This document shows positions 1 to 62,844 of a stretch of DNA of 64,000 bases, piece by piece. Numbering within the stretch: the first letter of the stretch is position 1; the number at the start of each line of letters is the position of its first letter. Made by a program: the position numbers and the translations under genes. This DNA is from an uncultured Candidatus Binatia bacterium (lineage in GTDB: Bacteria; Desulfobacterota; Binatia; HRBIN30; CADEER01): positions 2,337,219 to 2,401,218 of the forward strand of contig CBDCGC010000003.1 of NCBI GenBank assembly GCA_965216585.1, in the 5' to 3' direction. Under the pieces are notes generated by a model. It worked only from the letters and a program-made list of their open reading frames with translations, did not search any database and was not told the origin of the DNA.

Positions 1-1203
1 GGACTCGAGGCGATCGGCGGGGGCGAAGACATACAGACGCCACAGGGCTGCATAGCGCTCGGTCAATGCCTCAATTTCGTATGACCCGGCGACATCGACC
101 TCGTTCATCGGCACCACACCCCAGGGCGTATAGGCCCATGCCGCCGCTTCCTTCATCGCCGTCGACGCTGGGCAATAGATGATGACCTGGTGATCGTCTA
201 TGCCGGCGGCGGCAGCCAGCTCGCGTTCCGCAGCGGCCCTGTCGCGACTCGACGAGTGGTAGGTATTCACCAATTCGAGCCGCTCGTCGGCGGTGATCGA
301 TTCGCCGGACAGAACGTACGCGCGTTTCAACAGATCGCGCGTTTCAATCTGACGGGCGAGGACGCAGATGGGAGGCTGAGCCGATGCGCGCAGGTGCGCG
401 AGCAACGACCAGTCGCTGTGCTCGAGCAGCGAAGCCTCCTCCAGCTCGCCGGCGTCGCAGGCGAGCTCGACCGCCTTCGAGATCATCGCCCCGGCGACGA
501 CCTTGGTGTGGTGGTAGTAGACGCGTTCGGTGAGAAAATAGCGCAGCCGCAACAACTGAACGACCTCGGACCACGCATCGAGACGAGTCATGCCGTGCTT
601 GTTCATGTCGAGCACGAGACGGCCATCGACGACGGTGAAGTAGCGAAAGACGCGATCGTCGAACGTCTGGGCGAGTCCGGTGTACAAGGAGTCGCGGCGC
701 AGGTAGTCGAGAAGATCGGCATCGATCGTGCTCGACACGATCTCACCCGCCCACGACGGCGCGGCGCCGTCGCGCGGCGACAGCAGCGCCGACACCGAAC
801 GACGCAGGCCGAGCTCATCCAGGGTGTCGCCGAGCGCGCCGTCCATCAACCGCTCGTAGCGGCCACCCTTGTCGTGGCGCGGGAAGAGGCGGCGTTCGTC
901 TTCCAAGGTGTGGCCAAAAGGCACGTGAGGCACGTCGTGAATCAGCGCTGCAACCCCGATCGCAGCTTCGCTCTCGGCATCGACGGCGATTCCCGAGCGC
1001 CGCACCGAATCGACAATGCGGTGTGCTATCGCACAGGTGCCGAGCGAGTGCTCAAAGCGGGTGTGCAGGGCGCCGGGGTACACCAGGTAGGCAGTGCCCA
1101 ACTGCTTGATGCCGCGCAGCCGTTGCACGGCTGGGGAGTCGAGCACGCGCACCTCGGCAGGCGAAAGCTCGATGTCCCCGTGCAGGGTGTCGCGAACCAG
1201 CAC
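1..1203 (-). CDS. HD-domain metal-dependent phosphohydrolase (dGTPase/SAMHD1-like), partial: C-terminus lies beyond window start
   Basis: Minus-strand translation from GTG at 1203 reads VLVRDTLHGDIELSPAEVRVLDSPAVQRLRGIKQLGTAYLVYPGALHTRFEHSLGTCAIAH, which is the classic HD-domain signature (H...HD). The plus-strand ORF 190..1305 is its antisense. Confidence 0.75.
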   Translation of the reverse strand, partial: MLVRDTLHGDIELSPAEVRVLDSPAVQRLRGIKQLGTAYLVYPGALHTRFEHSLGTCAIAHRIVDSVRRSGIAVDAESEAAIGVAALIHDVPHVPFGHTLEDERRLFPRHDKGGRYERLMDGALGDTLDELGLRRSVSALLSPRDGAAPSWAGEIVSSTIDADLLDYLRRDSLYTGLAQTFDDRVFRYFTVVDGRLVLDMNKHGMTRLDAWSEVVQLLRLRYFLTERVYYHHTKVVAGAMISKAVELACDAGELEEASLLEHSDWSLLAHLRASAQPPICVLARQIETRDLLKRAYVLSGESITADERLELVNTYHSSSRDRAAAERELAAAAGIDDHQVIIYCPASTAMKEAAAWAYTPWGVVPMNEVDVAGSYEIEALTERYAALWRLYVFAPADRLES

Positions 1204-1210
1204 CGAGCGC

Positions 1211-1861
1211 CTACCCTTTCATGCCGACGGCGGCCGCCGCCGGGTGGAGGCTGCCATCCGCCGAAGGGCGAGCGCCTACGCGGGCAAACCAAGCCTGCAG
1301 GTTGACGAGGTCTTCGGGGATCGCCTGGCCGATGGCGCTGCCGAAGTCGGCAAAGGCGTAGAGCAACACGTCGGCCATGGTGAAGCGGTCGCCGCACAGA
1401 TAGTCGTTGCCCGCCATCAGACCGTCGAGCCACTTCATGTTCTCGCGAGCGACTCGCTTCAAGCCATCGGACGCCTCGGGCACGGTGGGAATCCGGTCTT
1501 GGAAGATTGCCAACCCCTCGCCATAGCGAAACCCATTGGCCATCGGCTCGATGATGTTGAGATCGACGCGACGTGCCCACATACGCGTCTCCGCCTTTTC
1601 GACGGTGTTGCTGCCAATCAGCGGCGGCTCGGGAACGGTATCTTCGATGTACTCGCAGATGGCGGTCACTTCCGAGAGAAACGTCCCGTCGTCGAGCTGT
1701 AGACAGGGGAGCTGACCGGCGGGGTTTCTCTTCTTGTATTCATCCTTGCGGTTCTCCGCACCCATCAGATCGACCTCGACGAGCTCGAGATCGACTCCTT
1801 TTTCGGCAGCGAACATACGGACCATGCGGGGGTTGGGTCCGAGACTGTTGTAGAGCTTCAT
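1211..1861 (-). CDS. glutathione S-transferase family protein
   Basis: 216-aa ORF with GST N-terminal thioredoxin-like and C-terminal helical domain features (MKLYNSLGPNPRMVRMFAAEKGVDLELVEVDL...). Sits directly upstream of the HD gene. Confidence 0.75.
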   Translation of the reverse strand: MKLYNSLGPNPRMVRMFAAEKGVDLELVEVDLMGAENRKDEYKKRNPAGQLPCLQLDDGTFLSEVTAICEYIEDTVPEPPLIGSNTVEKAETRMWARRVDLNIIEPMANGFRYGEGLAIFQDRIPTVPEASDGLKRVARENMKWLDGLMAGNDYLCGDRFTMADVLLYAFADFGSAIGQAIPEDLVNLQAWFARVGARPSADGSLHPAAAAVGMKG

Positions 1862-7194: not shown

Positions 7195-8283
7195 ATGCCG
7201 GGAATCTACGATCAGGTGCTCGCGTACATCGACCAGCCGGATGCGAGCGATTTCGACGACCTGGCACTGGCCGTCTTCGCTCACCAATACGCCGCCAATC
7301 GCCCCTACCGAGCGTTCTGTGAGAGCCGCGGCGCCGCGCCGAGCTCGCTGTCGAGTTGGCGCCAGATCCCAGCCGTGCCGATCCAGGCCTTCAAAGAGGT
7401 CGACCTCTGCTGCGGCGAAGCCGAACGCGTGTTCCTCTCGACCGGAACGACGGCGGGCGCAGACAAGCGATCGCGGCACTGCATGCCCGATTTGCGCCTC
7501 TATCGCCGCTCGGCAGTCGCCGGCCTGCGTCGTTTCCTGTTCCCCGACGTCGAGCGGATGAAGATGGTTTCCCTGATTCCACCCGTCACGGCGTGGCCCG
7601 ATTCATCTCTCGCCCAGATGGTGGCATGGGCGGGCGAAGACTTTTCCAGCGACGGCATCACCTACGCAACCGACGGAGAGGCGCCGCGTGTCGAAATGGT
7701 CGTCGATTGTCTGCGCGACAGCGAGCGCAGCGCCGAACCGCTGGCGATCTTCGCGACGACCGCAGCGCTCATTCAATTCCTCGACTACGCGCGCCAGGAG
7801 GGGCTCACCTTCCGCTTGCCGCACGACAGCCGCTTGATGGACACCGGCGGCGGCAAGGGAGCACCGCGACCGATGTCGCGCAAAGGCATTCTTCACGCAG
7901 TGTGGAATGCCTTCGCCATTCCGGGCTACTTCGCCGTCAACGAATACGGCATGGCCGAGATGTCGAGCCAATACTACGACTCGGTGATCTGCGATCGGTA
8001 CCGCGGCATCTTCGCGGCGCGCCGCCTGTTGGCACCCGAGTGGCTGCGCACCTGCGTGCTCGATCCAGTCGACCTCGAGCCGGTCGCCGACGGCGAAGCG
8101 GGACTGCTGTGTCACTACGATCTCGCCAATGCCGGCTCGGTGATGGCAATCCTCTCCGAGGATATGGGGAGAATCACCGGCGGCGGCTTGCAACACCTGG
8201 GACGTGCCCCGCAGGCGGAGGCTCGCGGTTGCTCACTGGCGGCCGGCGAGTGGAAGAGTGCGGCGCCAGCAGCGAGCGCCTGA
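7195..8283 (+). CDS. luxE: acyl-protein synthetase, LuxE family
   Basis: Clear similarity to LuxE: IPAVPIQAFKEV..FLSTGTTAG (compare IPVFPTSVFKF..FTSSGTNG) and MDTGGGKG (compare ITGGGWK). The ORF track starts at 6829 but overlaps the divergent gene, so ATG 7195 is chosen; start uncertain (ATG 7030/7033 also possible). Confidence 0.75.
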   Translation: MPGIYDQVLAYIDQPDASDFDDLALAVFAHQYAANRPYRAFCESRGAAPSSLSSWRQIPAVPIQAFKEVDLCCGEAERVFLSTGTTAGADKRSRHCMPDLRLYRRSAVAGLRRFLFPDVERMKMVSLIPPVTAWPDSSLAQMVAWAGEDFSSDGITYATDGEAPRVEMVVDCLRDSERSAEPLAIFATTAALIQFLDYARQEGLTFRLPHDSRLMDTGGGKGAPRPMSRKGILHAVWNAFAIPGYFAVNEYGMAEMSSQYYDSVICDRYRGIFAARRLLAPEWLRTCVLDPVDLEPVADGEAGLLCHYDLANAGSVMAILSEDMGRITGGGLQHLGRAPQAEARGCSLAAGEWKSAAPAASA

Positions 8284-8305
8284 TCAAACAGCCGTCAGCG
8301 CCATC

Positions 8306-9499
8306 ATGTCGGCGCTGCGCGCGGCGAATGCGCAGGCGGCAGCGTTGTCGCCACGCCAGCGGGCGGCAATCGTCGGCGAGTTGGCTGAGGCGTGGTTGCA
8401 GCCGGCATCACCGTGGTTGGCGCGCGCGGTAGACGCACTCACCGCCGCCGGGCCGTTCTCTCGGCCCATGCTCGAGCACGCTCTGCCGAGGATGATCGAA
8501 CCGCTGCGCGGCGATGCCATCGAACGCCTGGTGCGACGGGAGCTGGGCGACTGGCCCGAGCCAGCCGCAGCCAGTCTGGTAGTGCACATCCTGCCGAGCA
8601 ACCTGGCCGGGCACGCCGCGATTCCAGGCGCCCTGTCGCTCGTCGTCGGCGGCGCCTGCCTGCTCAAGTCCGGCCGTCGCGATCAGGACTTTGGCCGCCT
8701 GTGGGTCGAGTCGCTGCGCGCCACCAACGCCACGCTCGGAGCCTGCATCGAAAACCTGTACTGGCGCGGCGGCGATCGGCAGATTGAAGATTCAGTGTTC
8801 GGCGGTGCGGATGTGGTGATCGCGGCGGGCAGCGATCGCGCCATCGCCGACATCGGGGATCGCTGTCGAGGTCGATTCGCCGGCTACGGGCACCGCCTCA
8901 GCTTTGCCGTCGTCAGCGCCGGCGCCGACGTGCGCGCGGCGGCGAGCTGCTTGGCCGACGACATCGCGATCTGGGACCAACTGGGATGCTTGTCGCCACA
9001 GTCGTGCTTCGTCCAGGGCCCTCGCCAGCGCAGTGTCGAGCTGGCGGAACACCTCGCCGGCGAGCTGGCCGAGCGCGCACGGCGCTGGCCACCAGCCAGG
9101 CTGGAGGTCGGTGAGTTGCTGGCGATACGCCGCTTCCGCGACGCCGCGGCCTGGCGCGGCTTCGCGACAGGTGAGCCGTGTCTGTTTGCCGCCTCTGACG
9201 ATCTGGCCGCCGGCAACGTCGTCATCGACGAGGCCGGCAACTTCGCAGCGACGCCGCTCCACCGCTGCCTGCGCCTACTACCGTTTGCATCGCCAGACGA
9301 GGTGCGCGATGTCGTCGCAACGCAGCGCGGGCTTCTCGAAGGGGCGGCCGTCGCCGCACCGCCAGAGCAATGGGAGTCGTGGTGTGCGATCTTGCACGAG
9401 GCCGGTGTCCCGCAGGTGGTCGGCGCCGGAGAGCTCCAACGACCGACACTCGAGTGGCGGCAGAGCGGACGCGATCGGCTCGCCGGAGTCTATCTCTGA
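8306..9499 (+). CDS. luxC: acyl-CoA reductase, LuxC family (fatty aldehyde-forming)
   Basis: Similarity to LuxC: HILPSNLAGHAAIPGALSLVVGGACLLKSG, GADVVIAAGSDRAI, IWDQLGCLSPQSCFV (compare FYDQQACFSTQNIYY). Starts 23 nt after luxE. Confidence 0.75.
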   Translation: MSALRAANAQAAALSPRQRAAIVGELAEAWLQPASPWLARAVDALTAAGPFSRPMLEHALPRMIEPLRGDAIERLVRRELGDWPEPAAASLVVHILPSNLAGHAAIPGALSLVVGGACLLKSGRRDQDFGRLWVESLRATNATLGACIENLYWRGGDRQIEDSVFGGADVVIAAGSDRAIADIGDRCRGRFAGYGHRLSFAVVSAGADVRAAASCLADDIAIWDQLGCLSPQSCFVQGPRQRSVELAEHLAGELAERARRWPPARLEVGELLAIRRFRDAAAWRGFATGEPCLFAASDDLAAGNVVIDEAGNFAATPLHRCLRLLPFASPDEVRDVVATQRGLLEGAAVAAPPEQWESWCAILHEAGVPQVVGAGELQRPTLEWRQSGRDRLAGVYL

Positions 9500-52856: not shown

Positions 52857-55800
52857 GTGATTCCCAGGCTACCGCCAGAGGACGCGATCGAACCACTGTA
52901 CCGCGAGTTTCTCGACGAGCTCGGCGCAGGGCCCTTCAGCGGCGACATCCGCACCGACTTCGCCTCGCGCATCGTCCTCGCGACCGACAATAGCGTCCAC
53001 CAGATCGTACCTCAGGCCATCCTCTTCCCGCGCACGCGCAGCGACGTGCAGGCGGTCGGACGTCTCGCCAATCAACACCGATTTCACCGCATCCGTTTCG
53101 CTCCTCGCGGTGGAGGCACAGGAACCAACGGCGGCTCGCTCGGCACGGGAGTGTGTGTCGATCTATCGCGCTACATGAACCGCATTCTCGACCTCGACGT
53201 CGAGGCCAAACGGTTGCGCGTCGAGCCGGGTGTGACACTCGATCAAGTCAACCACTTCCTGGCAGCGCACGGGTTGTTCTTCGCGCCTCACGTCGCCCCG
53301 TCGGATCGCGCCACCTTGGGCGGCATGGTCAGTACCGACGCCAGCGGTATCGGTTCGCGCGTCTATGGCCGCACCAGCAATCACGTCGAGTCGATCGGAG
53401 TGGTTCTCGCCGACGGATCGTACTGGCGCTCGCAGCCCCTGCGGAGCGATGACGCAACGACTGAGTTGCCCGAGCGAATCGCCGCAGCAGCGGCTCTCGT
53501 CGCCAAAATCACACGCACACATGCCGGCGAAATCCAAACCCGTTTCCCGACCCACGACCGCTTCCTCACCGGCTACGACCTCGCCCACGCAGCGCGAGAC
53601 GACGAGATCAATCTGACCGCCATTCTCTGCGGTTCGGAAGGGACTCTCGGCTTCGTCGTCGACGTCGAGCTGCAGTTGACGGCGCGGCCGGCATGCACCG
53701 AGTTGACGGCTCTCTTCTACGCCTCCTTCGACGACGCGCTGGCCGATGCCCAGGCGTTGGTGGATCTCGACCCGACGGCGATCGAGACGATCGACGAGAC
53801 GATTCTCTCGTTGGCGCGCCAGGATCCGGTTTGGCGGCGAGTGGCATCCTGCGTCGAGTCCGCCGGCGCCGGACAAGCGAGGGCGATGAACCTGGTCGAA
53901 GTCAGCGGCAACGACGCCGGCGAGGTCAGCCGGCGGATGACGGAAGTCGACGCGATGGCGGCGCGGGGAGTCGCACTCGGATCCCATCGCGCCGCCCGTC
54001 GCGACGACGCCGAGGCCCTGTGGGAGCTGCGCAAGAAGGGCGTCGGGTTGCTCGGTGCGATGGCGGGCCGACGCCAACCCGTCGCCTTCGTCGAGGACTG
54101 CGCGCTACCACCGTCGGAGCTGCCGGCTTTCGTTCGCGAGATGCGCGAGATCTTGGCAAGCGAGAACCTCGACTACGGAATGTACGGACATGTCGACGTC
54201 GGCTGTCTACACGTCCGGCCGGCCCTCGACCTGCGCGACCCGGCCGACGAGCGGCGCCTGCGCGACATCTCCGACAGAGTCTTCGAGCTCGTACGGGCGC
54301 ACGGCGGTGTGTTCTGGGGCGAGCACGGAAAGGGGTTGCGATCGCACTACAACCCGCAGGTCTTCGGCCCCGTCCTCTACGAGGACTTGTGCCGGATCAA
54401 ACGGGCATTCGATCCGCACGACCAAATGAATCCGGGCAAGGTGGCCACCGCGTCACCGAATGCCAGCCTGGCACCAATCGGTGGGGACTTGCGCGGCACA
54501 CGCGATCGCGACATCGCCGCATCAGTAGAGCGACGGATCGCAGCCACCGTTGCCTGCAACGGCAACGGCGCATGTTTCTCTCTTTCGACGGGGCAGACGA
54601 TGTGCCCATCGATGAAGGAGCGCGGCGACCGCGTTCACTCACCCAAGGGCCGCGCCGCCCTCCTGCGAGAGTGGGCACGCGGTTTGTCGCGGCTCGGCTG
54701 GGACGGCACCGAGCCCTACGCCGCCGCTCGCCTTCGCAACGCCATCGATCCGCAGCGCTGGTCGCGCTTCTTCGCCGGCGCACCGGATTTCTCCCACCAG
54801 GTGTACGACGCCCTCGACGGATGCCTCGCTTGCAAGGCCTGTGTCGGTCAGTGCCCCATCCACGTCGACATACCATCGTACAAAGCCGAGTTCCTCTACG
54901 AGTACCACCAGCGCTACCCGCGTTCCGCCGAAGACGTTCTCATCGCGCGACTGGAATCGGCGCTACCGCACCTTGCGCCGCACGCCGGCGCACTCAACTT
55001 CCTCTTGCAATCGCGGTTCGCCGAATGGTTGTCCGGCAAGGTTTTCGGACTGACCTCCTTGCCACGTCTCGCGTCTCGCCCAGCGGATGCGATCCTGCGC
55101 GAACGCGGCGCGTTGATCCTCGACGGCAACGACTTCGGCGAAGGCGAGGCAGAGGTGGCTCTGTTGCTCGACGCCTTTTCCAACTTCCTGGCGCCGCAGG
55201 TCGCGCTCAGCGCCTACGAAACGATGCGCCAAACCGGCAGAACAGTCGCGGTGTTACCGTACCGCCCGAGCGGCAAATCCTTTCACGTCAAGGGCTACCT
55301 CGCCGAGGCACGCCGATTGGCGGAGGACAACTCGCGGGCCCTGGCGCCGCTCGCCGCCAGCGGTGTGGAAGTTTTTTGCGTCGATCCGGCGATCGCCTTG
55401 TTGTTTCGCCAGGAGTATCCCGCCCTACTCGGAAAGACCGCGGCGGCGCGCGTCTTTCTGCCACAAGAGATTTTGGCGGCGAGTCCAGATCGCCTACCAC
55501 CTGCCGGCGGCAGCGGTAGCTACGTTCTCCTCGCGCACTGCACCGAATCGACGACCCTGGCGAGCGCCGGAGACGATTGGAAGCGCGTTTTCGCTGCAGC
55601 CGGGTTGCGGCTCGAGACGAGGCGAGTTGGTTGTTGTGGCATGGCCGGCGCCTACGGACACCAAGCGCGACACCAAGAGGCGTCACGCCGCATCTTCAAT
55701 CTCTCCTGGGCTCAGCCGATCAAAGATCTGAGCCCATCGAGAATCCTCGTTACCGGCCACTCGTGCCGCACCCAGGTCGAACGCCTGGCCGGCTTTTCTC

Positions 55801-55871
55801 CGCGCCACCCGCTGCAGGTTCTGGAGGAAAGATGGGCATCATCAGCGCCCGATCCGGTTGAGACGCTGTAG
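52857..55871 (+). CDS. FAD-linked oxidase fused to (Fe-S)/CCG-domain module, YdiJ-like (D-2-hydroxyacid dehydrogenase-type)
   Basis: 1004 aa; N-terminal FAD-binding PCMH domain (RGGGTGTNGGS), central 4Fe-4S motif (CLACKACVGQCP), C-terminal Cys-rich CCG domains (CCGMAGAYG...HSCRTQ). Same size and architecture as E. coli YdiJ. Confidence 0.8.
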   Translation: MIPRLPPEDAIEPLYREFLDELGAGPFSGDIRTDFASRIVLATDNSVHQIVPQAILFPRTRSDVQAVGRLANQHRFHRIRFAPRGGGTGTNGGSLGTGVCVDLSRYMNRILDLDVEAKRLRVEPGVTLDQVNHFLAAHGLFFAPHVAPSDRATLGGMVSTDASGIGSRVYGRTSNHVESIGVVLADGSYWRSQPLRSDDATTELPERIAAAAALVAKITRTHAGEIQTRFPTHDRFLTGYDLAHAARDDEINLTAILCGSEGTLGFVVDVELQLTARPACTELTALFYASFDDALADAQALVDLDPTAIETIDETILSLARQDPVWRRVASCVESAGAGQARAMNLVEVSGNDAGEVSRRMTEVDAMAARGVALGSHRAARRDDAEALWELRKKGVGLLGAMAGRRQPVAFVEDCALPPSELPAFVREMREILASENLDYGMYGHVDVGCLHVRPALDLRDPADERRLRDISDRVFELVRAHGGVFWGEHGKGLRSHYNPQVFGPVLYEDLCRIKRAFDPHDQMNPGKVATASPNASLAPIGGDLRGTRDRDIAASVERRIAATVACNGNGACFSLSTGQTMCPSMKERGDRVHSPKGRAALLREWARGLSRLGWDGTEPYAAARLRNAIDPQRWSRFFAGAPDFSHQVYDALDGCLACKACVGQCPIHVDIPSYKAEFLYEYHQRYPRSAEDVLIARLESALPHLAPHAGALNFLLQSRFAEWLSGKVFGLTSLPRLASRPADAILRERGALILDGNDFGEGEAEVALLLDAFSNFLAPQVALSAYETMRQTGRTVAVLPYRPSGKSFHVKGYLAEARRLAEDNSRALAPLAASGVEVFCVDPAIALLFRQEYPALLGKTAAARVFLPQEILAASPDRLPPAGGSGSYVLLAHCTESTTLASAGDDWKRVFAAAGLRLETRRVGCCGMAGAYGHQARHQEASRRIFNLSWAQPIKDLSPSRILVTGHSCRTQVERLAGFSPRHPLQVLEERWASSAPDPVETL

Positions 55872-56251
55872 TTCCACACGATCTTCACGGCGGCTTGGGG
55901 GTCGTTAGGATCGATGTCCGGAAAAGGCCATCCGTAGACGTAGTTCGGTACGTTGCCGCTGCTGCGTTCGATGACCGTGCCGTCCGGAGGCAAAGCGTAG
56001 CGGCCGCGGTTGCGTTCGAGCGCTGCCTGAAAGATCGGATCGTCACCGATCTCTTCGACGTCGAAGTCGCGAACCTCGTGGCGCAAATCGCCACGCCGAT
56101 AGGCCTCCAGAAACTCCGCCGGCAGCAAGCCCCGAGCCTGCTGCCAACTCTCGGTGCCGAGGACGACACCCGGCTCAACGCCGCGCGCGGCCGGCGTACA
56201 GAGCAGGCAAACCAGCAGCTGTGCTAGTATCCTGAAGCGGACTTTCGACAC
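55872..56251 (-). CDS. small secreted protein, probably a truncated remnant
   Basis: Signal peptide MSKVRFRILAQLLVCLLCTPAARG. The 55712..56251 ORF runs 160 nt into the 3' end of the ydiJ-like gene, suggesting truncation. Confidence 0.3.
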
Positions 56252-56575: not shown

Positions 56576-56929
56576 CTCAAGCCTCCGTCAGCTCTCTTGC
56601 GAACGACGGCGACTGATCCGTGATCCGCGTTGCGAGCGATGCATCGATCGTAGTGCGCAGCGTATGACGCATCCCAAAGCAAGTCCACACAGAAAAACCT
56701 CCCACTGGGCCGGCCGCCTATCCAACCCCGCGGAAAATATGCATAACAACATACAAGCCCAAAAACAGAGAGCCTCCCAGGGCGAGCGATCTCTTGTCAA
56801 ACGATCGTTTGCTGCGAATGAATTTGAGACAAACGGTATTGCAAGAAGTCCGACGCGAGGAAGACTCAGTGTGCCCAAAGATCGACAGGCCCCGACCGGA
56901 CGAATCCTGCCGAGGCCTGTGAGTCTCCG

Positions 56930-56988
56930 CTACTCTGGTGAGAGTAGGTGCGGAGCGTGAAACGGATTCTGTCAGACCTACTCTCACC
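56930..56988. promoter_or_regulatory. operator-like inverted repeat: ctactct-GGTGAGAGTAGG ... 29 nt ... CCTACTCTCACC downstream of the XRE repressor gene; same 13-mer recurs at 57393-57405
   Basis: tGGTGAGAGTAGG at 56936-56948, its reverse complement at 56977-56988, and catGGTGAGAGTAGG at 57391-57405 in the divergent promoter region. Confidence 0.35.
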
Positions 56989-57023
56989 ATGTCCAGTATC
57001 GTGCCACAGGCTCCCCGCTCCAG

Positions 57024-57275
57024 TCAATCACAGTCCACAAAGAAACGGCCGACCGGTATGCCGAATGCGCGTGAGATCGCCTCCAAACTGCGGGCATTAG
57101 GCACCCTCTCGCCCGACTCCCAGCGCCGGACGGTCATCCCTCGCAACTTCGGCGCCTCCAGGCCCTGAGCCTCCAGTGAGCGACAAATAGTATCCGCGAA
57201 GCGCTCGGGGCTCATGTCCATCCCCTCGCGCAGTGTACGGATCTCCCCGGGCTCAAACCTCTGACCTAGTCCCAT
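57024..57275 (-). CDS. XRE-family helix-turn-helix transcriptional repressor (phage Cro/CI-like)
   Basis: MSPERFADTICRSL...GMTVRRWESGERVPNARSLEAISRAFGIP HTH_3 signature. True start is probably the internal Met (about 57221). Confidence 0.7.
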   Translation of the reverse strand: MGLGQRFEPGEIRTLREGMDMSPERFADTICRSLEAQGLEAPKLRGMTVRRWESGERVPNARSLEAISRAFGIPVGRFFVDCD

Positions 57276-57345
57276 ATCGGGGGTTGCACTACCACACTCC
57301 TTCAGGCTATGTCAAATCGATGTTCTCTTTTCGGTTGAAACATAC

Positions 57346-57385
57346 TCCTCATTTCGGTTGACATTTGGGCGCGGGGATGCGACTA
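57346..57385 (+). promoter_or_regulatory. putative rightward early promoter: TTGACA, then about 18-20 nt, then TATAAG; preceded by direct repeat tttcggttga x2
   Basis: cggTTGACAtttgggcgcggggatgcgacTATAAGg immediately upstream of the 57392 ORF. Confidence 0.3.
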
Positions 57386-57391
57386 TAAGGC

Positions 57392-57793
57392 ATGGTGAGA
57401 GTAGGAACAGAGGCAAGAACCCCCGCCGAAACCAGCAGATTTTCAGCGGATTGCCCATATTGCGGGCGCATCGACTGCGGTTGCTACGACGGCCGCGTTG
57501 TCGCCGGCGGCCTGGTGGCAGTGATCGCTGGCTACGAGGGGGCGGGCGTCGACTGGCCGGTATATCCGACCACCGGAGTGGAGCACTCGACCAATCGGGA
57601 GATCCCCGGCGAGGCGATCGACACCGGCCACCTGGCCGACTGGCTCGGTCTGCCGGCGGGCGAGATTGAGCGACTGACGGCGATCGCCAACGAGGGTGAC
57701 CTCAGGCGCGCGCTTGCCGCGATGATCGAATGTCCGGATTGCGCCGAGTTCCCGAGCTGGTGCGAGTGTGCGGCCAGCGAGGTGGCGGCATGA
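57392..57793 (+). CDS. hypothetical Cys-rich protein (CPYCGRIDCGC ... CPDCAEFPSWCEC)
   Basis: 133-aa ORF whose first codons overlap the operator-like 13-mer. Translationally coupled (ATGA) to the next ORF. Confidence 0.4.
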   Translation: MVRVGTEARTPAETSRFSADCPYCGRIDCGCYDGRVVAGGLVAVIAGYEGAGVDWPVYPTTGVEHSTNREIPGEAIDTGHLADWLGLPAGEIERLTAIANEGDLRRALAAMIECPDCAEFPSWCECAASEVAA

Positions 57794-58011
57794 TCGAGGA
57801 TCGGTGGCTGACGCAGTCGCGGGCGATCTATAGGCGCCTGCTGGACGGCACCGCAACCGCGCGCGATCGACTCGACATCGCGATCATGGTGCATGAGATG
57901 CGCGAGGCGCACCTGCCGGTACCGGCCGAGATCGTGGCGGCTGCCGGCGCGCCGCCGGCTTGGTACCTCGCTGGCGACCCGATGCCGGCGGCAGAGCGGA
58001 GGAGGGTTTAG
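57790..58011 (+). CDS. hypothetical protein
   Basis: MIEDRWLTQSRAIYRRLLDG...; ATGA overlap with the upstream ORF. Confidence 0.3.
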   Translation: MIEDRWLTQSRAIYRRLLDGTATARDRLDIAIMVHEMREAHLPVPAEIVAAAGAPPAWYLAGDPMPAAERRRV

Positions 58012-58013
58012 GG

Positions 58014-59894
58014 ATGAGGATCTCCCGGGACGCAGAGCGCTGGGTGGCCGAGAGCACCTACGAGGAGCGGGCCATTCCGAAACGCGCCGGCTGGCGTTGG
58101 GACCCGAAGGACAAGTGCTGGTGGACGGACGACATCGAGAAGGCGGCGCGACTAGCGGAGTACGCCGACGAGGGTTGCGCCGATGAACTGCGGCCGATCC
58201 TCGATGAGCAGCAGGCCGCACTGGCGGCGTCGCGCGCTGTAGATTCCGACATCGACGTCCCCGCGCCGGACGGCCTGGCGTACCTCCCGTACCAACGCGG
58301 AGGCATTGCCTTCGCCGCCGCGCGCGAAGCCTGCCTGATCGGCGACGAGATGGGGCTTGGCAAGACGATTCAGGCCCTCGGCGTGATCAACCTCGACGAA
58401 TCGATCCGCCGCGTCCTGGTTGTCTGTCCCGCGTCACTCAAGGCCAACTGGGCCATCGAGGCGCGCAAGTGGCTGGTCCGCGACATGTCGGTGGGCATCG
58501 CGGCAGGTAGGCGCCTGCCCGACGCCGATGTCGTGATCGTCAACTACGCAATCCTCACCAAGCTGCCGCTCGATTCCGTGGAGTGGGACCTGCTCATCGC
58601 CGACGAGTGCCACTACGCGAAGAATCCCAAAGCCAAGCGCACGAAAGCGCTCTTTGCGGTCAAGGCGGCGCGCAGGATTCTTCTCACCGGAACCCCGATC
58701 GTCAACCGGCCCGTCGAGCTCTGGCCGCTGATCAAGTACCTCGACCCGAAGCGCTGGAAGAACAAGATGAGGTTCGGCTGGCGCTACTGCGGCGCGCATC
58801 AGAACGCCTACGGGTACTGGGACTTCTCGGGCGCCACGAATCTCGACGAGCTGCAGGAGATTCTCCGTAGCACGATCATGGTTCGCCGGTTGAAGGTCGA
58901 CGTTCTTACTGACCTTCCGCCCAAGGTCCGCCAGGTTGTCGAGTTGCCGTCGGATGGCATGGACTGGGCGCACGAATCGGACGCCAGCGACGCCTACGAC
59001 GACCTGCAAGCTGCGGAGGAAGAGGTCGACGCCCTCGACGAGTCCGCGCCCGGGTACGAGGCCGCGGTCGGCCGACTCAAGCAGGCCAGGCGGTTTTTCT
59101 TCGACGAAATCAGCCGGGTGCGGCACGAGACGGCGCTCGCGAAAGTGCCGCACGCAATCGAGCACCTGCACAACGCGCTCGAGGACGGCCGCAAGATCGT
59201 GTGCTTCGCGCACCACCATGACGTCATCGAGGCGCTGGCCTCCGAGTTTGGTGACTCGGCGGTAGTGATCTACGGCGAAACGAATGTGGACGACCGGCAG
59301 GGCGCCGTCGACCGCTTCCAGTCCGATCCGGATTGCCGCCTCTTCGTTGGCAGCATCGGCGCCGCCGGAGTCGGGCTAACGCTCACCGCGGCGGCGCACG
59401 TTGTCTTTGTCGAGCTCGACTGGGTGCCGGGCAATGTCAGCCAGGCAGAGGATCGCTGCCACCGCATCGGACAGCGCGATAGCGTGCTGGTGCAACACCT
59501 GGTCTTCAACGGATCAATCGACGCCCGTATCGCGCGCACGATCATCGCCAAGCAGCGGGTGATTGACGATGCACTCGATACGCAGCACCTGCCCGCCGAA
59601 CCCGCACAACCGAAGCCGGTCGCACACGACCCGGAGCTACCGGCCGCGCAGGTGGAAGCGATCCACAATGGGTTGCGGATGTTGGCCGCATTCTGCGACG
59701 GAGCTCGCGAGGTCGATGGGGCCGGATTCAACAAACTCGATACCGACTTTGGGAAATCCCTTGCAGGTGCCCAGTCGCTGAGCCCTAAGCAGGCCAGGGC
59801 TGGTCGCAAGCTCGTGAGGAAGTACCGGCGACAGTTACCAGATGACCTGGTCGCAGTAGCCGTCGACGGCCCGCAAGCCGAGGTAACGGCATGA
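58014..59894 (+). CDS. SNF2/RAD54-family DEAD/DEAH-box helicase (phage-type)
   Basis: GGAGG Shine-Dalgarno; motifs GDEMGLGKT (I), DECH (II), LLTGTPIVN (III), C-terminal helicase domain (GSIGAAGVGLTLTAA, QAEDRCHRIGQ). Confidence 0.85.
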   Translation: MRISRDAERWVAESTYEERAIPKRAGWRWDPKDKCWWTDDIEKAARLAEYADEGCADELRPILDEQQAALAASRAVDSDIDVPAPDGLAYLPYQRGGIAFAAAREACLIGDEMGLGKTIQALGVINLDESIRRVLVVCPASLKANWAIEARKWLVRDMSVGIAAGRRLPDADVVIVNYAILTKLPLDSVEWDLLIADECHYAKNPKAKRTKALFAVKAARRILLTGTPIVNRPVELWPLIKYLDPKRWKNKMRFGWRYCGAHQNAYGYWDFSGATNLDELQEILRSTIMVRRLKVDVLTDLPPKVRQVVELPSDGMDWAHESDASDAYDDLQAAEEEVDALDESAPGYEAAVGRLKQARRFFFDEISRVRHETALAKVPHAIEHLHNALEDGRKIVCFAHHHDVIEALASEFGDSAVVIYGETNVDDRQGAVDRFQSDPDCRLFVGSIGAAGVGLTLTAAAHVVFVELDWVPGNVSQAEDRCHRIGQRDSVLVQHLVFNGSIDARIARTIIAKQRVIDDALDTQHLPAEPAQPKPVAHDPELPAAQVEAIHNGLRMLAAFCDGAREVDGAGFNKLDTDFGKSLAGAQSLSPKQARAGRKLVRKYRRQLPDDLVAVAVDGPQAEVTA

Positions 59895-60450: not shown

Positions 60451-60890
60451 TGGCCGCCAGGGTTTCCGTTGCCGAAGCTCGATCGCGACGAGATGCGGAC
60501 TTTGCCGCCGGCGCTGATGCGCGCCGCAAGCAGATCGCCCGCGAGCTGCGATCCATTGCACGTCAGGTTGAGTGCGGCGACTCCGACGAAACGGTGCTCG
60601 CCGCCGCCGGGCGACTGATCCAGCACAACCAAGCCAGCCGCGAACGGTGCGCGGCCTTCTACTCAATCCACGAAGCGGCCGCCGGCACCGGGTCGAGCGT
60701 GTCCTACCGCGTCGACGCGCACGTTGAGAGCGAGACGGTCCCTGCCGGGTCGTTTCCGGCCTTCGACGAGGCGCTCGACTACTGCCGCGACGTCTTCGCG
60801 CGCCGCGGGGCCAGGTTCGGAATCGATCGAGTCTGCGACGGGCACTGGGTGACCGCGTCGCTACAGATCACGGGAGGTACAACGACATGA
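60450..60890 (+). CDS. hypothetical protein
   Basis: ATG 60450 overlaps the upstream stop; 146 aa. Confidence 0.35.
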   Translation: MAARVSVAEARSRRDADFAAGADARRKQIARELRSIARQVECGDSDETVLAAAGRLIQHNQASRERCAAFYSIHEAAAGTGSSVSYRVDAHVESETVPAGSFPAFDEALDYCRDVFARRGARFGIDRVCDGHWVTASLQITGGTTT

Positions 60891-61810
60891 TCACAGAAGA
60901 GCAACGACAGCGACGCAAGGGCTTTCTCGGGTCGTCCGATGCGGCGGCGGTATTCGATCTCGACCCCTTCCGAGACAAGACCTCAGTCTACTGGGACAAG
61001 GTCGCGGACATGCCCGACGATGGGCCAACCGCATCAATGCGCGCGGGCAACCTGCTCGAGGGCGCCATCCTCGACTACGCAGCGCAGGAGCTCGGCGTTG
61101 AGATCGAGCGAGATATCGAAATTGCGCCGCCGGCAGATCTGCCGTACATGGGCGCCAATCTCGACGGGCGCGTCGACGGCAAGACTCACGAGGGCGTCGA
61201 GGCTAAGTACGACACCTTCACGGTCGACCAGTGGGGCGACGAAGGGACGGACCAGGTACCCGAGCGCGTCATCGTGCAGGTGCACCACCAGATGGCGGTG
61301 GCGGCGCTCGACCGAGTGTGGGTTCCGGTGCTCAAGCCGCGCGGCTTCGGCTTGTACGTGGTCGACCGATCCGAGGAGTTGATATCCCAGGTCATCGAGG
61401 GCGAGCGGAAGTTCTGGGACGAGCATGTGTTGGCAGAGTTGCCGCCGTCGGGCGACCCGACCCCGCCGCTGGCGTACCTCAAGGCGCGCAACCGTGAACC
61501 GGAGTCGATCGTAGATCTCGACGAGGCGGCCCTTGAAGCCTGGCGCGAGCTCGAAGAGAGGCGCGCAACCGCTAAGGCCGCGAAAGAGGATGTCGACGCG
61601 GCGCAGGCGCGCGTGATTGATCTACTCGGGGACGCCGAGGGTGGACGTCTGCCCTCCGGTGACCTGATCACTTTCCTCGAGCAGAAGTCGGCGCCGTCGT
61701 GCGACAGCAAGCGGCTGCGCGCGTTGCATCCGGACGTGTACCGCGAGTTCTTCCGCCAAGGTACGCACCGGCGACTCAGGCTCAAGGCAGCGAAGAGGGC
61801 GGCGGCGTGA
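60887..61810 (+). CDS. YqaJ-like viral recombinase-domain exonuclease (PD-(D/E)XK, lambda-Exo-like)
   Basis: RRKGFLGSSDAAAVFDLDPFRDKTSVYWDK...MRAGNLLEGAILDYAAQELG...ANLDGRVDG...EAKYD pattern typical of YqaJ; paired with RecT. Confidence 0.7.
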   Translation: MITEEQRQRRKGFLGSSDAAAVFDLDPFRDKTSVYWDKVADMPDDGPTASMRAGNLLEGAILDYAAQELGVEIERDIEIAPPADLPYMGANLDGRVDGKTHEGVEAKYDTFTVDQWGDEGTDQVPERVIVQVHHQMAVAALDRVWVPVLKPRGFGLYVVDRSEELISQVIEGERKFWDEHVLAELPPSGDPTPPLAYLKARNREPESIVDLDEAALEAWRELEERRATAKAAKEDVDAAQARVIDLLGDAEGGRLPSGDLITFLEQKSAPSCDSKRLRALHPDVYREFFRQGTHRRLRLKAAKRAAA

Positions 61811-62013
61811 CGAACCACCCGTCAGCGCCGAGCGGCTCCGTGCTTCCCCTAGGGGCACGGGGAGTCTCGAAGGGGGCTCGTGCGCAGTTTCCTTGTTGTA
61901 TCGGCGCAAGCGCACCGCGTGCCGTCCGCTGCGCTGCTCATCGGCTGGCCCTCCGGGAGCAATAGACGGCAAGGGCCGATTTTCATCGACGAAAATCCAG
62001 AAAGGAGATTGTG

Positions 62014-62844
62014 ATGGCAAACGCAGTGGCAAAGGTCTCAACCCTGCGCGAGATGCTCGAGAAGAGTAAGGCGCAGATCCAACAAGCACTCCCCCGCCAC
62101 ATGGACGCCGACAAGATGGCGCGCGTGGCGATGACCAGCATCCAGAACACACCGGCACTGCTCGAGTGCGATCCCAAGACGGTGCTCGGCGCGGTGATGG
62201 AAGCAGCGCAACTCGGACTCGAGCCCGACGGCGTACTCGGGCATGCATACCTCGTGCCGTACAAGCGCAAGTGCACTCTGATCGTCGGCTACAAGGGGAT
62301 GATCGCGCTCGCGTACCGCAGCGGGCAGGTGCTCTCGCTCAAGGGCAACGTGGTCTACGAGACCGACGAATTCGAGGTCGCCTTCGGCATCGACGAGAAG
62401 TTGAAACACGTACCGGATTACGAGTCGAAGAAGCGAGGCAATCGAGTCTGCACCTACGCAATCGCGCACATGAAAGACGGAGGGCACGCCTTCGTAGTGC
62501 TCTCGATGCACGAGGTCGAGGCGCACCGGAAGAAATCAGCGTCGGCCAACTCGCCGGCATGGAAGGATCACTACGACGCGATGGCGATCAAGACCGCGGT
62601 GCGCGTCTTGGCGCGGTGGATTCCGCAGTGTCCCGAGCTCCAGCAGGCGGGCGCGAGAGAGGATTCCATGGAGGGCGGTGCGGATCCCGATGGGTTGGTG
62701 ATCGACATCACCGAGGATCAGGACGACAACCGCACCGACCAGGTGGCGCGCAAGATCAAGGGGGATGCGGACAAGCCCAAGGCCGAGGATAAGCCCAAGG
62801 CTGACAAAGCCCCTGACCCCGACGACGACGGTGAGGCGGTCTGA
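62014..62844 (+). CDS. recT: RecT-family single-strand annealing recombinase
   Basis: AAAGGAG Shine-Dalgarno; ...SIQNTPALLECDPKTVLGAVMEAAQLGLEPDGVLGHAYLVPYKRKCTLIVGYKGMIALAYRSGQV... RecT signature; acidic C-terminal tail. Confidence 0.8.
   Translation: MANAVAKVSTLREMLEKSKAQIQQALPRHMDADKMARVAMTSIQNTPALLECDPKTVLGAVMEAAQLGLEPDGVLGHAYLVPYKRKCTLIVGYKGMIALAYRSGQVLSLKGNVVYETDEFEVAFGIDEKLKHVPDYESKKRGNRVCTYAIAHMKDGGHAFVVLSMHEVEAHRKKSASANSPAWKDHYDAMAIKTAVRVLARWIPQCPELQQAGAREDSMEGGADPDGLVIDITEDQDDNRTDQVARKIKGDADKPKAEDKPKADKAPDPDDDGEAV

Follow-up and report, generated by a model that had tools for sequence, protein, structure and literature searches.

A 64-kb stretch of DNA from an uncultured Candidatus Binatia bacterium (the window, which below means the stretch at its full length of 64,000 nucleotides) carries three exact copies of a 13-mer, TGGTGAGAGTAGG, that bracket a gene for an 83-amino-acid (aa) XRE-type protein with an HTH_3 helix-turn-helix (HTH) domain. 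The gene lies at the left end of a prophage early region that includes genes for an SNF2 helicase, a YqaJ exonuclease and RecT. We propose, from a comparison of sequences, that the three 13-mers are operators of this adjacent protein, the presumed immunity repressor of the prophage, and we give this reading a probability of about 0.6. The sites recur in the same layout in related elements, a variable part of the motif changes together in all copies of one element, and the protein, as modelled, has the DNA-binding fold of phage repressors. An earlier reading made from the letters of the window alone (the sequence-only reading) had described the repeats as operator-like targets of the HTH protein in an arrangement of the OL/OR type. 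What stands of this proposal is a specific, locally confined set of sites that is tied to the HTH gene and co-varies by lineage, but not the OL/OR arrangement.

The motif copies and their conservation in related elements

The sequence-only reading had counted a 12/13-mer three times within 480 bp near the repressor gene, and three exact copies were indeed found (Table 1); the 12-mer, GGTGAGAGTAGG, extends to the 13-mer in every copy. When one mismatch was allowed, the 13-mer gave 3 matches in the window against 0.03 expected, and none of 100 shuffles of the window gave three. A fourth copy with up to two mismatches was not present anywhere in the 64 kb, which speaks against a generic dispersed repeat, and at three mismatches the count (43) was at the level of chance (39.6). 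Inverted repeats without a mismatch join copies 1 and 2 over 14 nt (56936-49 with 56976-89), the arms being 26 nt apart, and copies 2 and 3 over 15 nt (CATGGTGAGAGTAGG; 56977-91 with 57391-405), with 399 nt between them. The longest word common to both 150-bp flanks was accordingly 15 nt long; in 2000 shuffles of the flanks it was usually 7 nt and never longer than 12 nt. The second copy is inverted as had been described, although the gap between the first two 12-mers is 28 nt rather than 29 nt. The half-palindrome CTACTCT that had been seen ahead of copy 1 lies at 56930-36, and the ATG of the first rightward open reading frame (ORF), at 57392, is overlapped by copy 3, again as described. Copy 1 is quasi-palindromic, whereas copies 2 and 3 are asymmetric and have no symmetric partner.

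The repressor has almost no known relatives. Among 5.8 billion clusters, a word-index search with the HTH protein alone returned only the query, and a profile search returned five proteins; an exhaustive hidden Markov model search of 1.84 billion representatives gave 3 matches at E <= 1e-30 and 17 at E <= 1e-10. The 50,697 sequenced phages of INPHARED held no match at the protein or DNA level, peptide-pattern scans of metagenome and genome collections gave no relatives, and exact-match look-ups of the window HTH, RecT and SNF2 proteins and of the called SNF2 protein P0002 found none on record. Relatives were reached through the neighbouring SNF2 gene and then through the profile; identities given here are pairwise, to the window repressor. 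They are a viral contig of 22.6 kb from JGI/IMG-VR (L001; 56-61% identity), one lineage from Logan reads and an NCBI metagenome-assembled genome (MAG) and represented by L012, L015, L016 and L017 (57%), a JGI contig of 907 bp (L018; 59%, and 88% to the L012 protein), and an NCBI MAG contig of 468 bp (L019; 49%). A locus found through an SNF2 homolog (L020, P0008) was discarded because it was not syntenic, and the broader XRE relatives (L003, L022-L031 and L033-L037) belong to other subfamilies and do not have the layout; they were kept as negative controls. DNA scans of genome, metagenome and viral collections for the convergent pair TGGTGAGANNAGG N20-50 CCTNNTCTCACCA returned only the L001 contig and unrelated palindromes, among them a Corynebacterium locus and a 70-nt palindrome adjacent to grpE, none of which has a relative of the HTH protein. 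The best match outside the family in the exhaustive protein search, P0126 (761 aa), has eight HTH domains of this type in tandem, with the long loop between helices 2 and 3 present as well; it may be a relative with several domains, or paralogs that have become fused in a row.

Three other lineages, with repressors 49-61% identical to that of the window, carry the motif at the matching positions as far as their contigs reach: all three copies are found in L001 and L012, two in L019 before the contig ends, and the promoter copy only in L018. Copy 2 has the orientation seen in the window in L001, L012 and L019 alike. The main reason to regard the repeats as functional, and as the target of a single factor specific to each lineage, is their conservation across DNA that has otherwise diverged, as seen by alignment. 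Three lineages have an unchanged core, TGGTGAGA, which is replaced by TGGTCAGG in the fourth (L019), in which the motif reads ATGGTCAGG(A/G)T both at the promoter and past the stop codon. The 4-5 nt that follow the core are specific to each lineage, yet they are identical or one base apart among the copies of one element. A variable part that is uniform within an element and different between elements would be expected if a single co-evolving protein recognises the sites. In all three lineages in which copy 1 can be seen it is quasi-palindromic, and its outer four bases track the variable part (CTAC..GTAG in the window, CCTG..CAGG in L001 and GCGA..TCGC in L012); copies 2 and 3 retain the preceding A of the ATG in all lineages. 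Additional copies with up to two mismatches were detected neither in 21.8 kb of L001 nor in 5.3 kb of L012, and the 6.6 kb of the early operon in the window contain none. The distance from the distal pair to the promoter site is about 390-440 bp in three lineages. At 14 unrelated XRE loci that served as controls, no matched motif was present on both flanks, with one 12-mer and at most 10 nt in the rest.

Two further features of these loci were observed. In L018 a second, paralogous HTH gene (MGIGQRFAKEKITQ..., 846-907) begins about 20 nt past the stop codon of the first, at the place where the other lineages have the convergent pair of sites; the contig ends at this point. Short palindromes that are specific to a lineage lie between the divergent promoters, AACAGTTCTGTT in L001 (9323-9334) and GACAAAATTGTC in L012 (1751-1762) and L018; they have no counterpart in the window and are possible sites of a second regulator.

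Table 1. Coordinates of the motif copies and of other features in the window and in related elements.
Element	Feature	Position	Strand	Description
Window	Distal site, copy 1	56930..56948	+	TGGTGAGAGTAGG at 56936-56948 (12-mer 56937-56948), within palindrome CTACTCT-GGTG-AGAGTAG; variable part GTAGG
Window	Proximal site, copy 2	56977..56991	-	CATGGTGAGAGTAGG; 13-mer TGGTGAGAGTAGG at 56977-56989 (12-mer 56977-56988); 32 nt past repressor stop codon; converges on copy 1; variable part GTAGG
Window	Promoter-side site, copy 3	57391..57405	+	CATGGTGAGAGTAGG; 13-mer TGGTGAGAGTAGG at 57393-57405 (12-mer 57394-57405); spans predicted transcription start and codons 1-5 (MVRVG) of first early gene; variable part GTAGG
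Window	83-aa XRE/HTH_3 protein gene, presumed immunity repressor	57024..57275	-	Pfam HTH_3, PHROGs, AlphaFold2 model
Window	Predicted repressor promoter	57286..57315	-	-35 TTGACA 57315-57310, 18-nt spacer, weak -10 TAGTGC 57291-57286, 10 nt to ATG
Window	Predicted early rightward promoter	57358..57386	+	-35 TTGACA 57358-63, 17-nt spacer, hexamer GACTAT 57381-86, 5 nt to ATG
Window	Terminator-like GC hairpin	56874..56920	-	arms 56885-56900 and 56905-56920, then weak T-run on - strand
Window	First early ORF	57392..57793	+	133 aa, Cys-rich, no family match; opens rightward operon
Window	SNF2 gene	57960-59894		rightward operon
Window	YqaJ gene	60887-61810		rightward operon
Window	RecT gene	62011-62844		rightward operon
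L001	Copy 1	8897		TGGTGAGAACAGG; core TGGTGAGA + ACAGG
L001	Copy 2	8953-65; longer repeat 8953-8968		TGGTGAGAGCAGG; core TGGTGAGA + GCAGG
L001	Copy 3	9393; longer repeat from 9392		TGGTGAGAACAGA; core TGGTGAGA + ACAGA
L012	Copy 1	1372		TGGTGAGAGTCGC; core TGGTGAGA + GTCGC
L012	Copy 2	1417-29; longer repeat 1417-1431		TGGTGAGAGTCGA; core TGGTGAGA + GTCGA
L012	Copy 3	1809; longer repeat from 1808		TGGTGAGAGTCGA; core TGGTGAGA + GTCGA
L018	Copy 1			past contig end
L018	Copy 2			second HTH paralog after repressor stop
L018	Copy 3			identical to L012
L019	Copy 1			past contig end
L019	Copy 2	about 411-425		CGCATGGTCAGGGT
L019	Copy 3			CGCATGGTCAGGAT

The repressor, its transcription unit and the prophage end

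The 83-aa protein matched Pfam HTH_3 (PF01381) with 30.1 bits against a cut-off of 23, and HTH_31 with 19.2 bits, which is under the cut-off of that family; it also matched PHROGs families of transcriptional regulators and repressors. An AlphaFold2 model built from five family members (pLDDT 87.2) has five helices, short N- and C-terminal strands, and a 9-residue loop between helices 2 and 3 that is longer in L001. In a Foldseek search the best matches of the model were P22 c2 (TMt 0.79) and the N-terminal domain of TP901-1 CI (TM 0.70), followed by CylR2, the 434 repressor and C.AhdI; the top matches had a probability of about 1.0, but E values of at least 0.01. Thus the modelled protein has the DNA-binding fold of phage repressors, and no solved structure of a close sequence relative was found. 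The 83 residues hold the HTH domain only, with no C-terminal oligomerisation domain or S24 self-cleavage domain, and the terminal beta-strands of the model might mediate dimerisation.

Two divergent promoters are predicted between the repressor gene and the early operon, and both assignments are our own reading of conserved spacing. The layout of the repressor promoter, TTGAC(A/C)-18-TAnnnn-7..10-ATG, is also found in L001, L012, L018 and L019; at the early promoter the same four loci have TTGACA-17-GA(T/G)AA(A/G)-6-ATG, in which the hexamer is GATAAA, GATAAG or GAGAAG. In all five loci the promoter copy of the motif comes after TTGACA, 17 nt, the hexamer and 5-6 nt, beginning with ATGG. The usual geometry of sigma-70 promoters puts the start of the early transcript at the A of this ATG. 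Because the spacing is constant in the five loci, copy 3 can be assigned to the predicted start site, where it would cover about +2 to +14. The homologous first ORF of L012 has no other usable start codon downstream of the promoter, and for this reason the ATG inside the motif is likely to be the start of a leaderless mRNA, from which, judging by the sequence, the first early ORF is probably translated. Shine-Dalgarno sequences are absent from both divergent genes (57273-57291 and 57381-57394 in the window, and the equivalent positions in L001, L012, L018 and L019). Since both genes start 5-10 nt past a hexamer resembling a -10 element and have no Shine-Dalgarno sequence, both mRNAs may be leaderless or nearly leaderless.

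Downstream of the repressor gene a GC hairpin probably ends the repressor transcript. The homologous hairpins of L001 and L012 are followed by strong T-runs and show compensatory changes in the stem, and an invariant GACGAATCC lies on the + strand of the hairpin, at 56899-56907 in the window. Copy 2 is located 23-32 nt and copy 1 about 70-90 nt past the repressor stop codon; as both are placed between the stop codon and the terminator hairpin, they lie inside the repressor transcription unit. Near copy 2 the window has one weak leftward match to the promoter consensus, TGGACA-18-CAGAAT, the positions of which are not conserved in L001 or L012; no leftward promoter conserved across the three lineages that show the distal pair was found, and scans of L001 and L012 called nothing. 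One candidate for such a promoter, a TTGACT that overlaps the stop codon in the window and L001, was rejected, as its spacing to a -10 element is 21 and 16 nt and L012 has no -35 element. A small ORF starting at the ATG of copy 2 was likewise dismissed, the translations of the three lineages having only MVR in common. The conserved terminator loop, GGAUUCGUC, was considered as the seed of a small RNA, but no complementary site was found in the early regions, and the loop is better explained as a relic of the 3' end of rnpB.

Traces of rnpB were seen at several of these prophage ends. The L012-type prophage lies directly after rnpB, and the left half of its hairpin (1320-1357) is a 94% direct repeat of the 3' part of that gene (955-1308; RF00010, 249 bits). 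Judged by this repeat, the hairpin is apparently a relic of a copied rnpB 3' end, perhaps an old attachment core; its counterparts lie at 56885-56920 in the window and at 8841-8884 in L001, and all three contain GACGAATCC. L001 also carries, at 8766-8795, a 30-nt fragment (GGACAGAATCCGGCTTATCGACCCTCT, - strand) identical to the 3' end of rnpB, located between the integrase gene (7603-8463) and the repressor terminator. This fragment is probably attP; with respect to the repressor it is oriented the other way round from L012. No rnpB gene is present in the window; within the 26-nt loop between copies 1 and 2, at 56964-56973, the window has GGATTCTGTC, the reverse complement of the conserved rnpB segment GACAGAATCC.

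To the left of the repressor region lie a 450-bp non-coding stretch of lower G+C content and then ordinary metabolic genes, and phage early genes extend to the right, which places the repressor at the left end of the prophage. No tRNA, Rfam family or integrase gene adjoining this end was found in the window, and a viral scan with the first early ORF gave no match. Further left, a 179-aa ORF (55712-56251, - strand) with an N-terminus resembling a signal peptide overlaps the 3' end of a convergent gene for a 1004-aa FAD-oxidase/Fe-S protein (52857-55871, + strand). It has a weak, partial match to DUF1329 (E = 0.0034; 17.2 bits against a cut-off of 23.1) and may be a truncated gene near the prophage junction.

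Proposed operators of the neighbouring repressor, and the alternatives

If the three 13-mers are operators, the repressor bound to copy 3 would keep RNA polymerase from initiating at the early promoter or from clearing it, and occupancy of this site would silence the SNF2/YqaJ/RecT operon in the lysogen. The convergent copies 1 and 2 would then be auxiliary sites at the very end of the prophage, which probably raise the local concentration of repressor or loop to the promoter site about 400 bp away. The pair may also act as a roadblock, shielding the switch against host transcription that runs into the prophage; rnpB, the host gene beside the L012 prophage, faces into it. Several observations weigh against operators bound by this protein. 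Small XRE proteins usually bind dyad-symmetric sites as dimers, and the 13-mer is asymmetric in sequence, copy 1 alone being quasi-palindromic. Looping over about 400 bp would call for an oligomerisation module, and none is evident in the modelled single domain of 83 aa. There is no copy with up to four mismatches near the repressor promoter, hence no autoregulation of the lambda kind, and a scan with the sigma-70 consensus called neither promoter of the switch. Furthermore, the palindromes AACAGTTCTGTT and GACAAAATTGTC could be the true dimer operators in L001 and in L012 and L018, although the window lacks any, and the joint change of the copies is equally expected with a different phage protein or with pairing between RNAs.

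Pairing between RNAs is the basis of one alternative, which we consider unlikely: the 3' untranslated region (UTR) of the repressor mRNA, or a small RNA derived from it, would block the translation or stability of the early mRNA, the motif being read as RNA besides or instead of by a protein, so that a protein-plus-RNA immunity switch would sit at the prophage end. In the repressor 3' UTR, copy 2 pairs with the complement of copy 1 to give a 14-bp hairpin directly ahead of the terminator, and the complement of copy 1, CCUACUCUCACCA, is itself perfectly complementary to the first 13-14 nt of the predicted leaderless early mRNA, including its AUG; the promoter copy lies exactly at the predicted 5' end of that mRNA. 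A 13-nt antisense segment could thus act on the AUG-proximal 5' end, with copy 2 as a decoy in cis that gates its availability. The 3' UTR is predicted to fold into two hairpins (-66.3 kcal/mol, z = -2.4), and the consensus fold of three lineages keeps a 12-bp stem with two compensatory positions and one G-U pair, the wobble being possible on the repressor-sense strand only. In each lineage a hexamer resembling a -10 element (CAGAAT, CAACAT or TATATA) lies just past copy 2 and could start an antisense RNA without copy 2, but no -35 element for such a promoter is conserved. Known antisense regulators expose their antisense segment, whereas here it is buried in the 14-bp stem of the predicted full 3' UTR rather than exposed in a loop. 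Rfam gave no match in the window and no C4-type RNA, and the covariation of the stem is predicted by operators as well. The hairpin may simply stabilise the repressor mRNA, but this would leave the lineage-specific variant in the promoter copy unexplained.

It is just as improbable that the sites are bound by a phage protein other than the adjacent HTH protein. The N-terminal domain of an integrase, which binds arm-type sites, an excisionase or directionality factor, or the Cys-rich first early protein as a Cro-like counter-regulator would be candidates; Apl of 186 and Cox of P2 are directionality factors that also regulate transcription. The position of copies 1 and 2 at the prophage end is in keeping with arm sites, as they lie 64-110 bp from the rnpB junction in L012 and, in L001, 100-160 bp from the rnpB 3' fragment beside the integrase gene. 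Arm-type and Cox/Apl sites are asymmetric, and any co-inherited phage protein would account for the lineage-wise change of the copies. However, the other attP arm of L001, from the integrase gene to the core, has no copy of the motif, copy 3 lies about 500 bp from the putative core and precisely at the start of the early promoter, and the element in the window keeps the same core motif although it is not beside rnpB. No other gene is linked to the three sites as tightly and invariably as the HTH gene that they bracket. Less probable still is a DNA inversion switch with copies 2 and 3 as crossover sites, which was suggested by the perfect 15-nt inverted repeat that flanks exactly the 399-bp segment with the repressor gene and both promoters; retention of the preceding A of the ATG in both copies would preserve the start codon of the early ORF upon inversion. 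No invertase or recombinase gene is nearby in the window, the independent contigs of one lineage (L012, L015, L016 and L017) are all in one orientation, the repeats are short for recombinase sites, and copy 1 would be left unexplained. A chance repeat, or part of a generic dispersed repeat, is effectively refuted by the number of copies observed against that expected and by their confinement to this locus; in addition, the layout recurs in related lineages, and the scans of collections returned only one homologous element (L001).

If this repressor does have its operators in the three sites, a very rare family of prophage repressors would have its switch almost completely defined from sequence, with its target motif, invariant core TGGTGAGA, specificity part of 4-5 bp and promoter layout. 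The related elements would then provide a natural set of three or four orthogonal repressor/operator pairs, in which one could learn how a small XRE domain reads an asymmetric site, and a compact case in which an operator is built into the start codon of a leaderless mRNA. For annotation, the left prophage end and the immunity region are fixed. The understanding of phage switches would not be changed unless the motif acts at the RNA level. The 13-mers are probably the DNA targets of the repressor, in a genuine but rather ordinary immunity switch that is unusual in layout and whose protein belongs to a rare family.

Comparison with known phage immunity systems

The CI RNA of P4 and the c4 RNAs of P1 and P7 are antisense immunity RNAs. 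The locus described here resembles these systems in having three copies of a short sequence; as RNA, one copy is the complement of the other two, among them the one at the 5' end of the target. The locus differs from them in that Rfam gives no match, the antisense segment is predicted to be buried, and a gene for a protein repressor is present.

With lambda the locus shares a leftward repressor gene that diverges from a rightward early operon and related sites on both sides of the repressor gene. A further likeness is that the repressor gene has no Shine-Dalgarno sequence and is probably expressed from a leaderless or nearly leaderless mRNA, as is lambda cI from PRM. Nevertheless, the sequence-only claim of lambdoid operators of the OL/OR type was not upheld, as the promoter side has one asymmetric site, the repressor promoter none, no leftward promoter is conserved, and the protein has a single domain. 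In lambda, three dyad-symmetric sites overlap the divergent PR and PRM promoters and cover the -35 and -10 regions, whereas here one asymmetric site lies past the -10 region, at +1 to +14 of the predicted rightward promoter. The downstream pair is within the repressor transcription unit, ahead of the terminator, and without the equivalent of a conserved leftward promoter (PL). The lambda repressor, for which DNA looping has been summarised (PMC11149083), has two domains; the protein studied here has 83 aa and no oligomerisation or S24 domain.

Sites at a distance from the regulated promoter are a point of resemblance to coliphage 186 and to TP901-1, in which about three related sites, some of them remote, are thought to act cooperatively. 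The CI repressor of 186 reportedly has flanking sites, FL and FR. TP901-1 CI has three palindromic sites, OR, OL and OD (PMC11149083), and its N-terminal domain is matched by the model of the window repressor, as noted above. In both phages, however, palindromes are bound by dimers that oligomerise through their C-terminal domains, whereas two of the three sites described here lack symmetry and the protein has one domain only.

Mycobacteriophage L5 and other cluster A phages have 13-bp asymmetric operators and stoperators (PMC9283540). More than 20 such sites are spread over the genome in that system, in contrast to exactly three here, with none in the 6.6 kb of the early operon or in the 21.8 kb of L001, and the L5 repressor is a two-domain monomer of 183 aa rather than a single domain of 83 aa. 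What the two systems have in common is an asymmetric 13-mer that is oriented with transcription: copy 3 runs in the direction of the early operon, and copy 2 in that of the repressor transcript. As in L5, a site lies downstream of the start point of transcription, and a roadblock mode of repression is conceivable here too.

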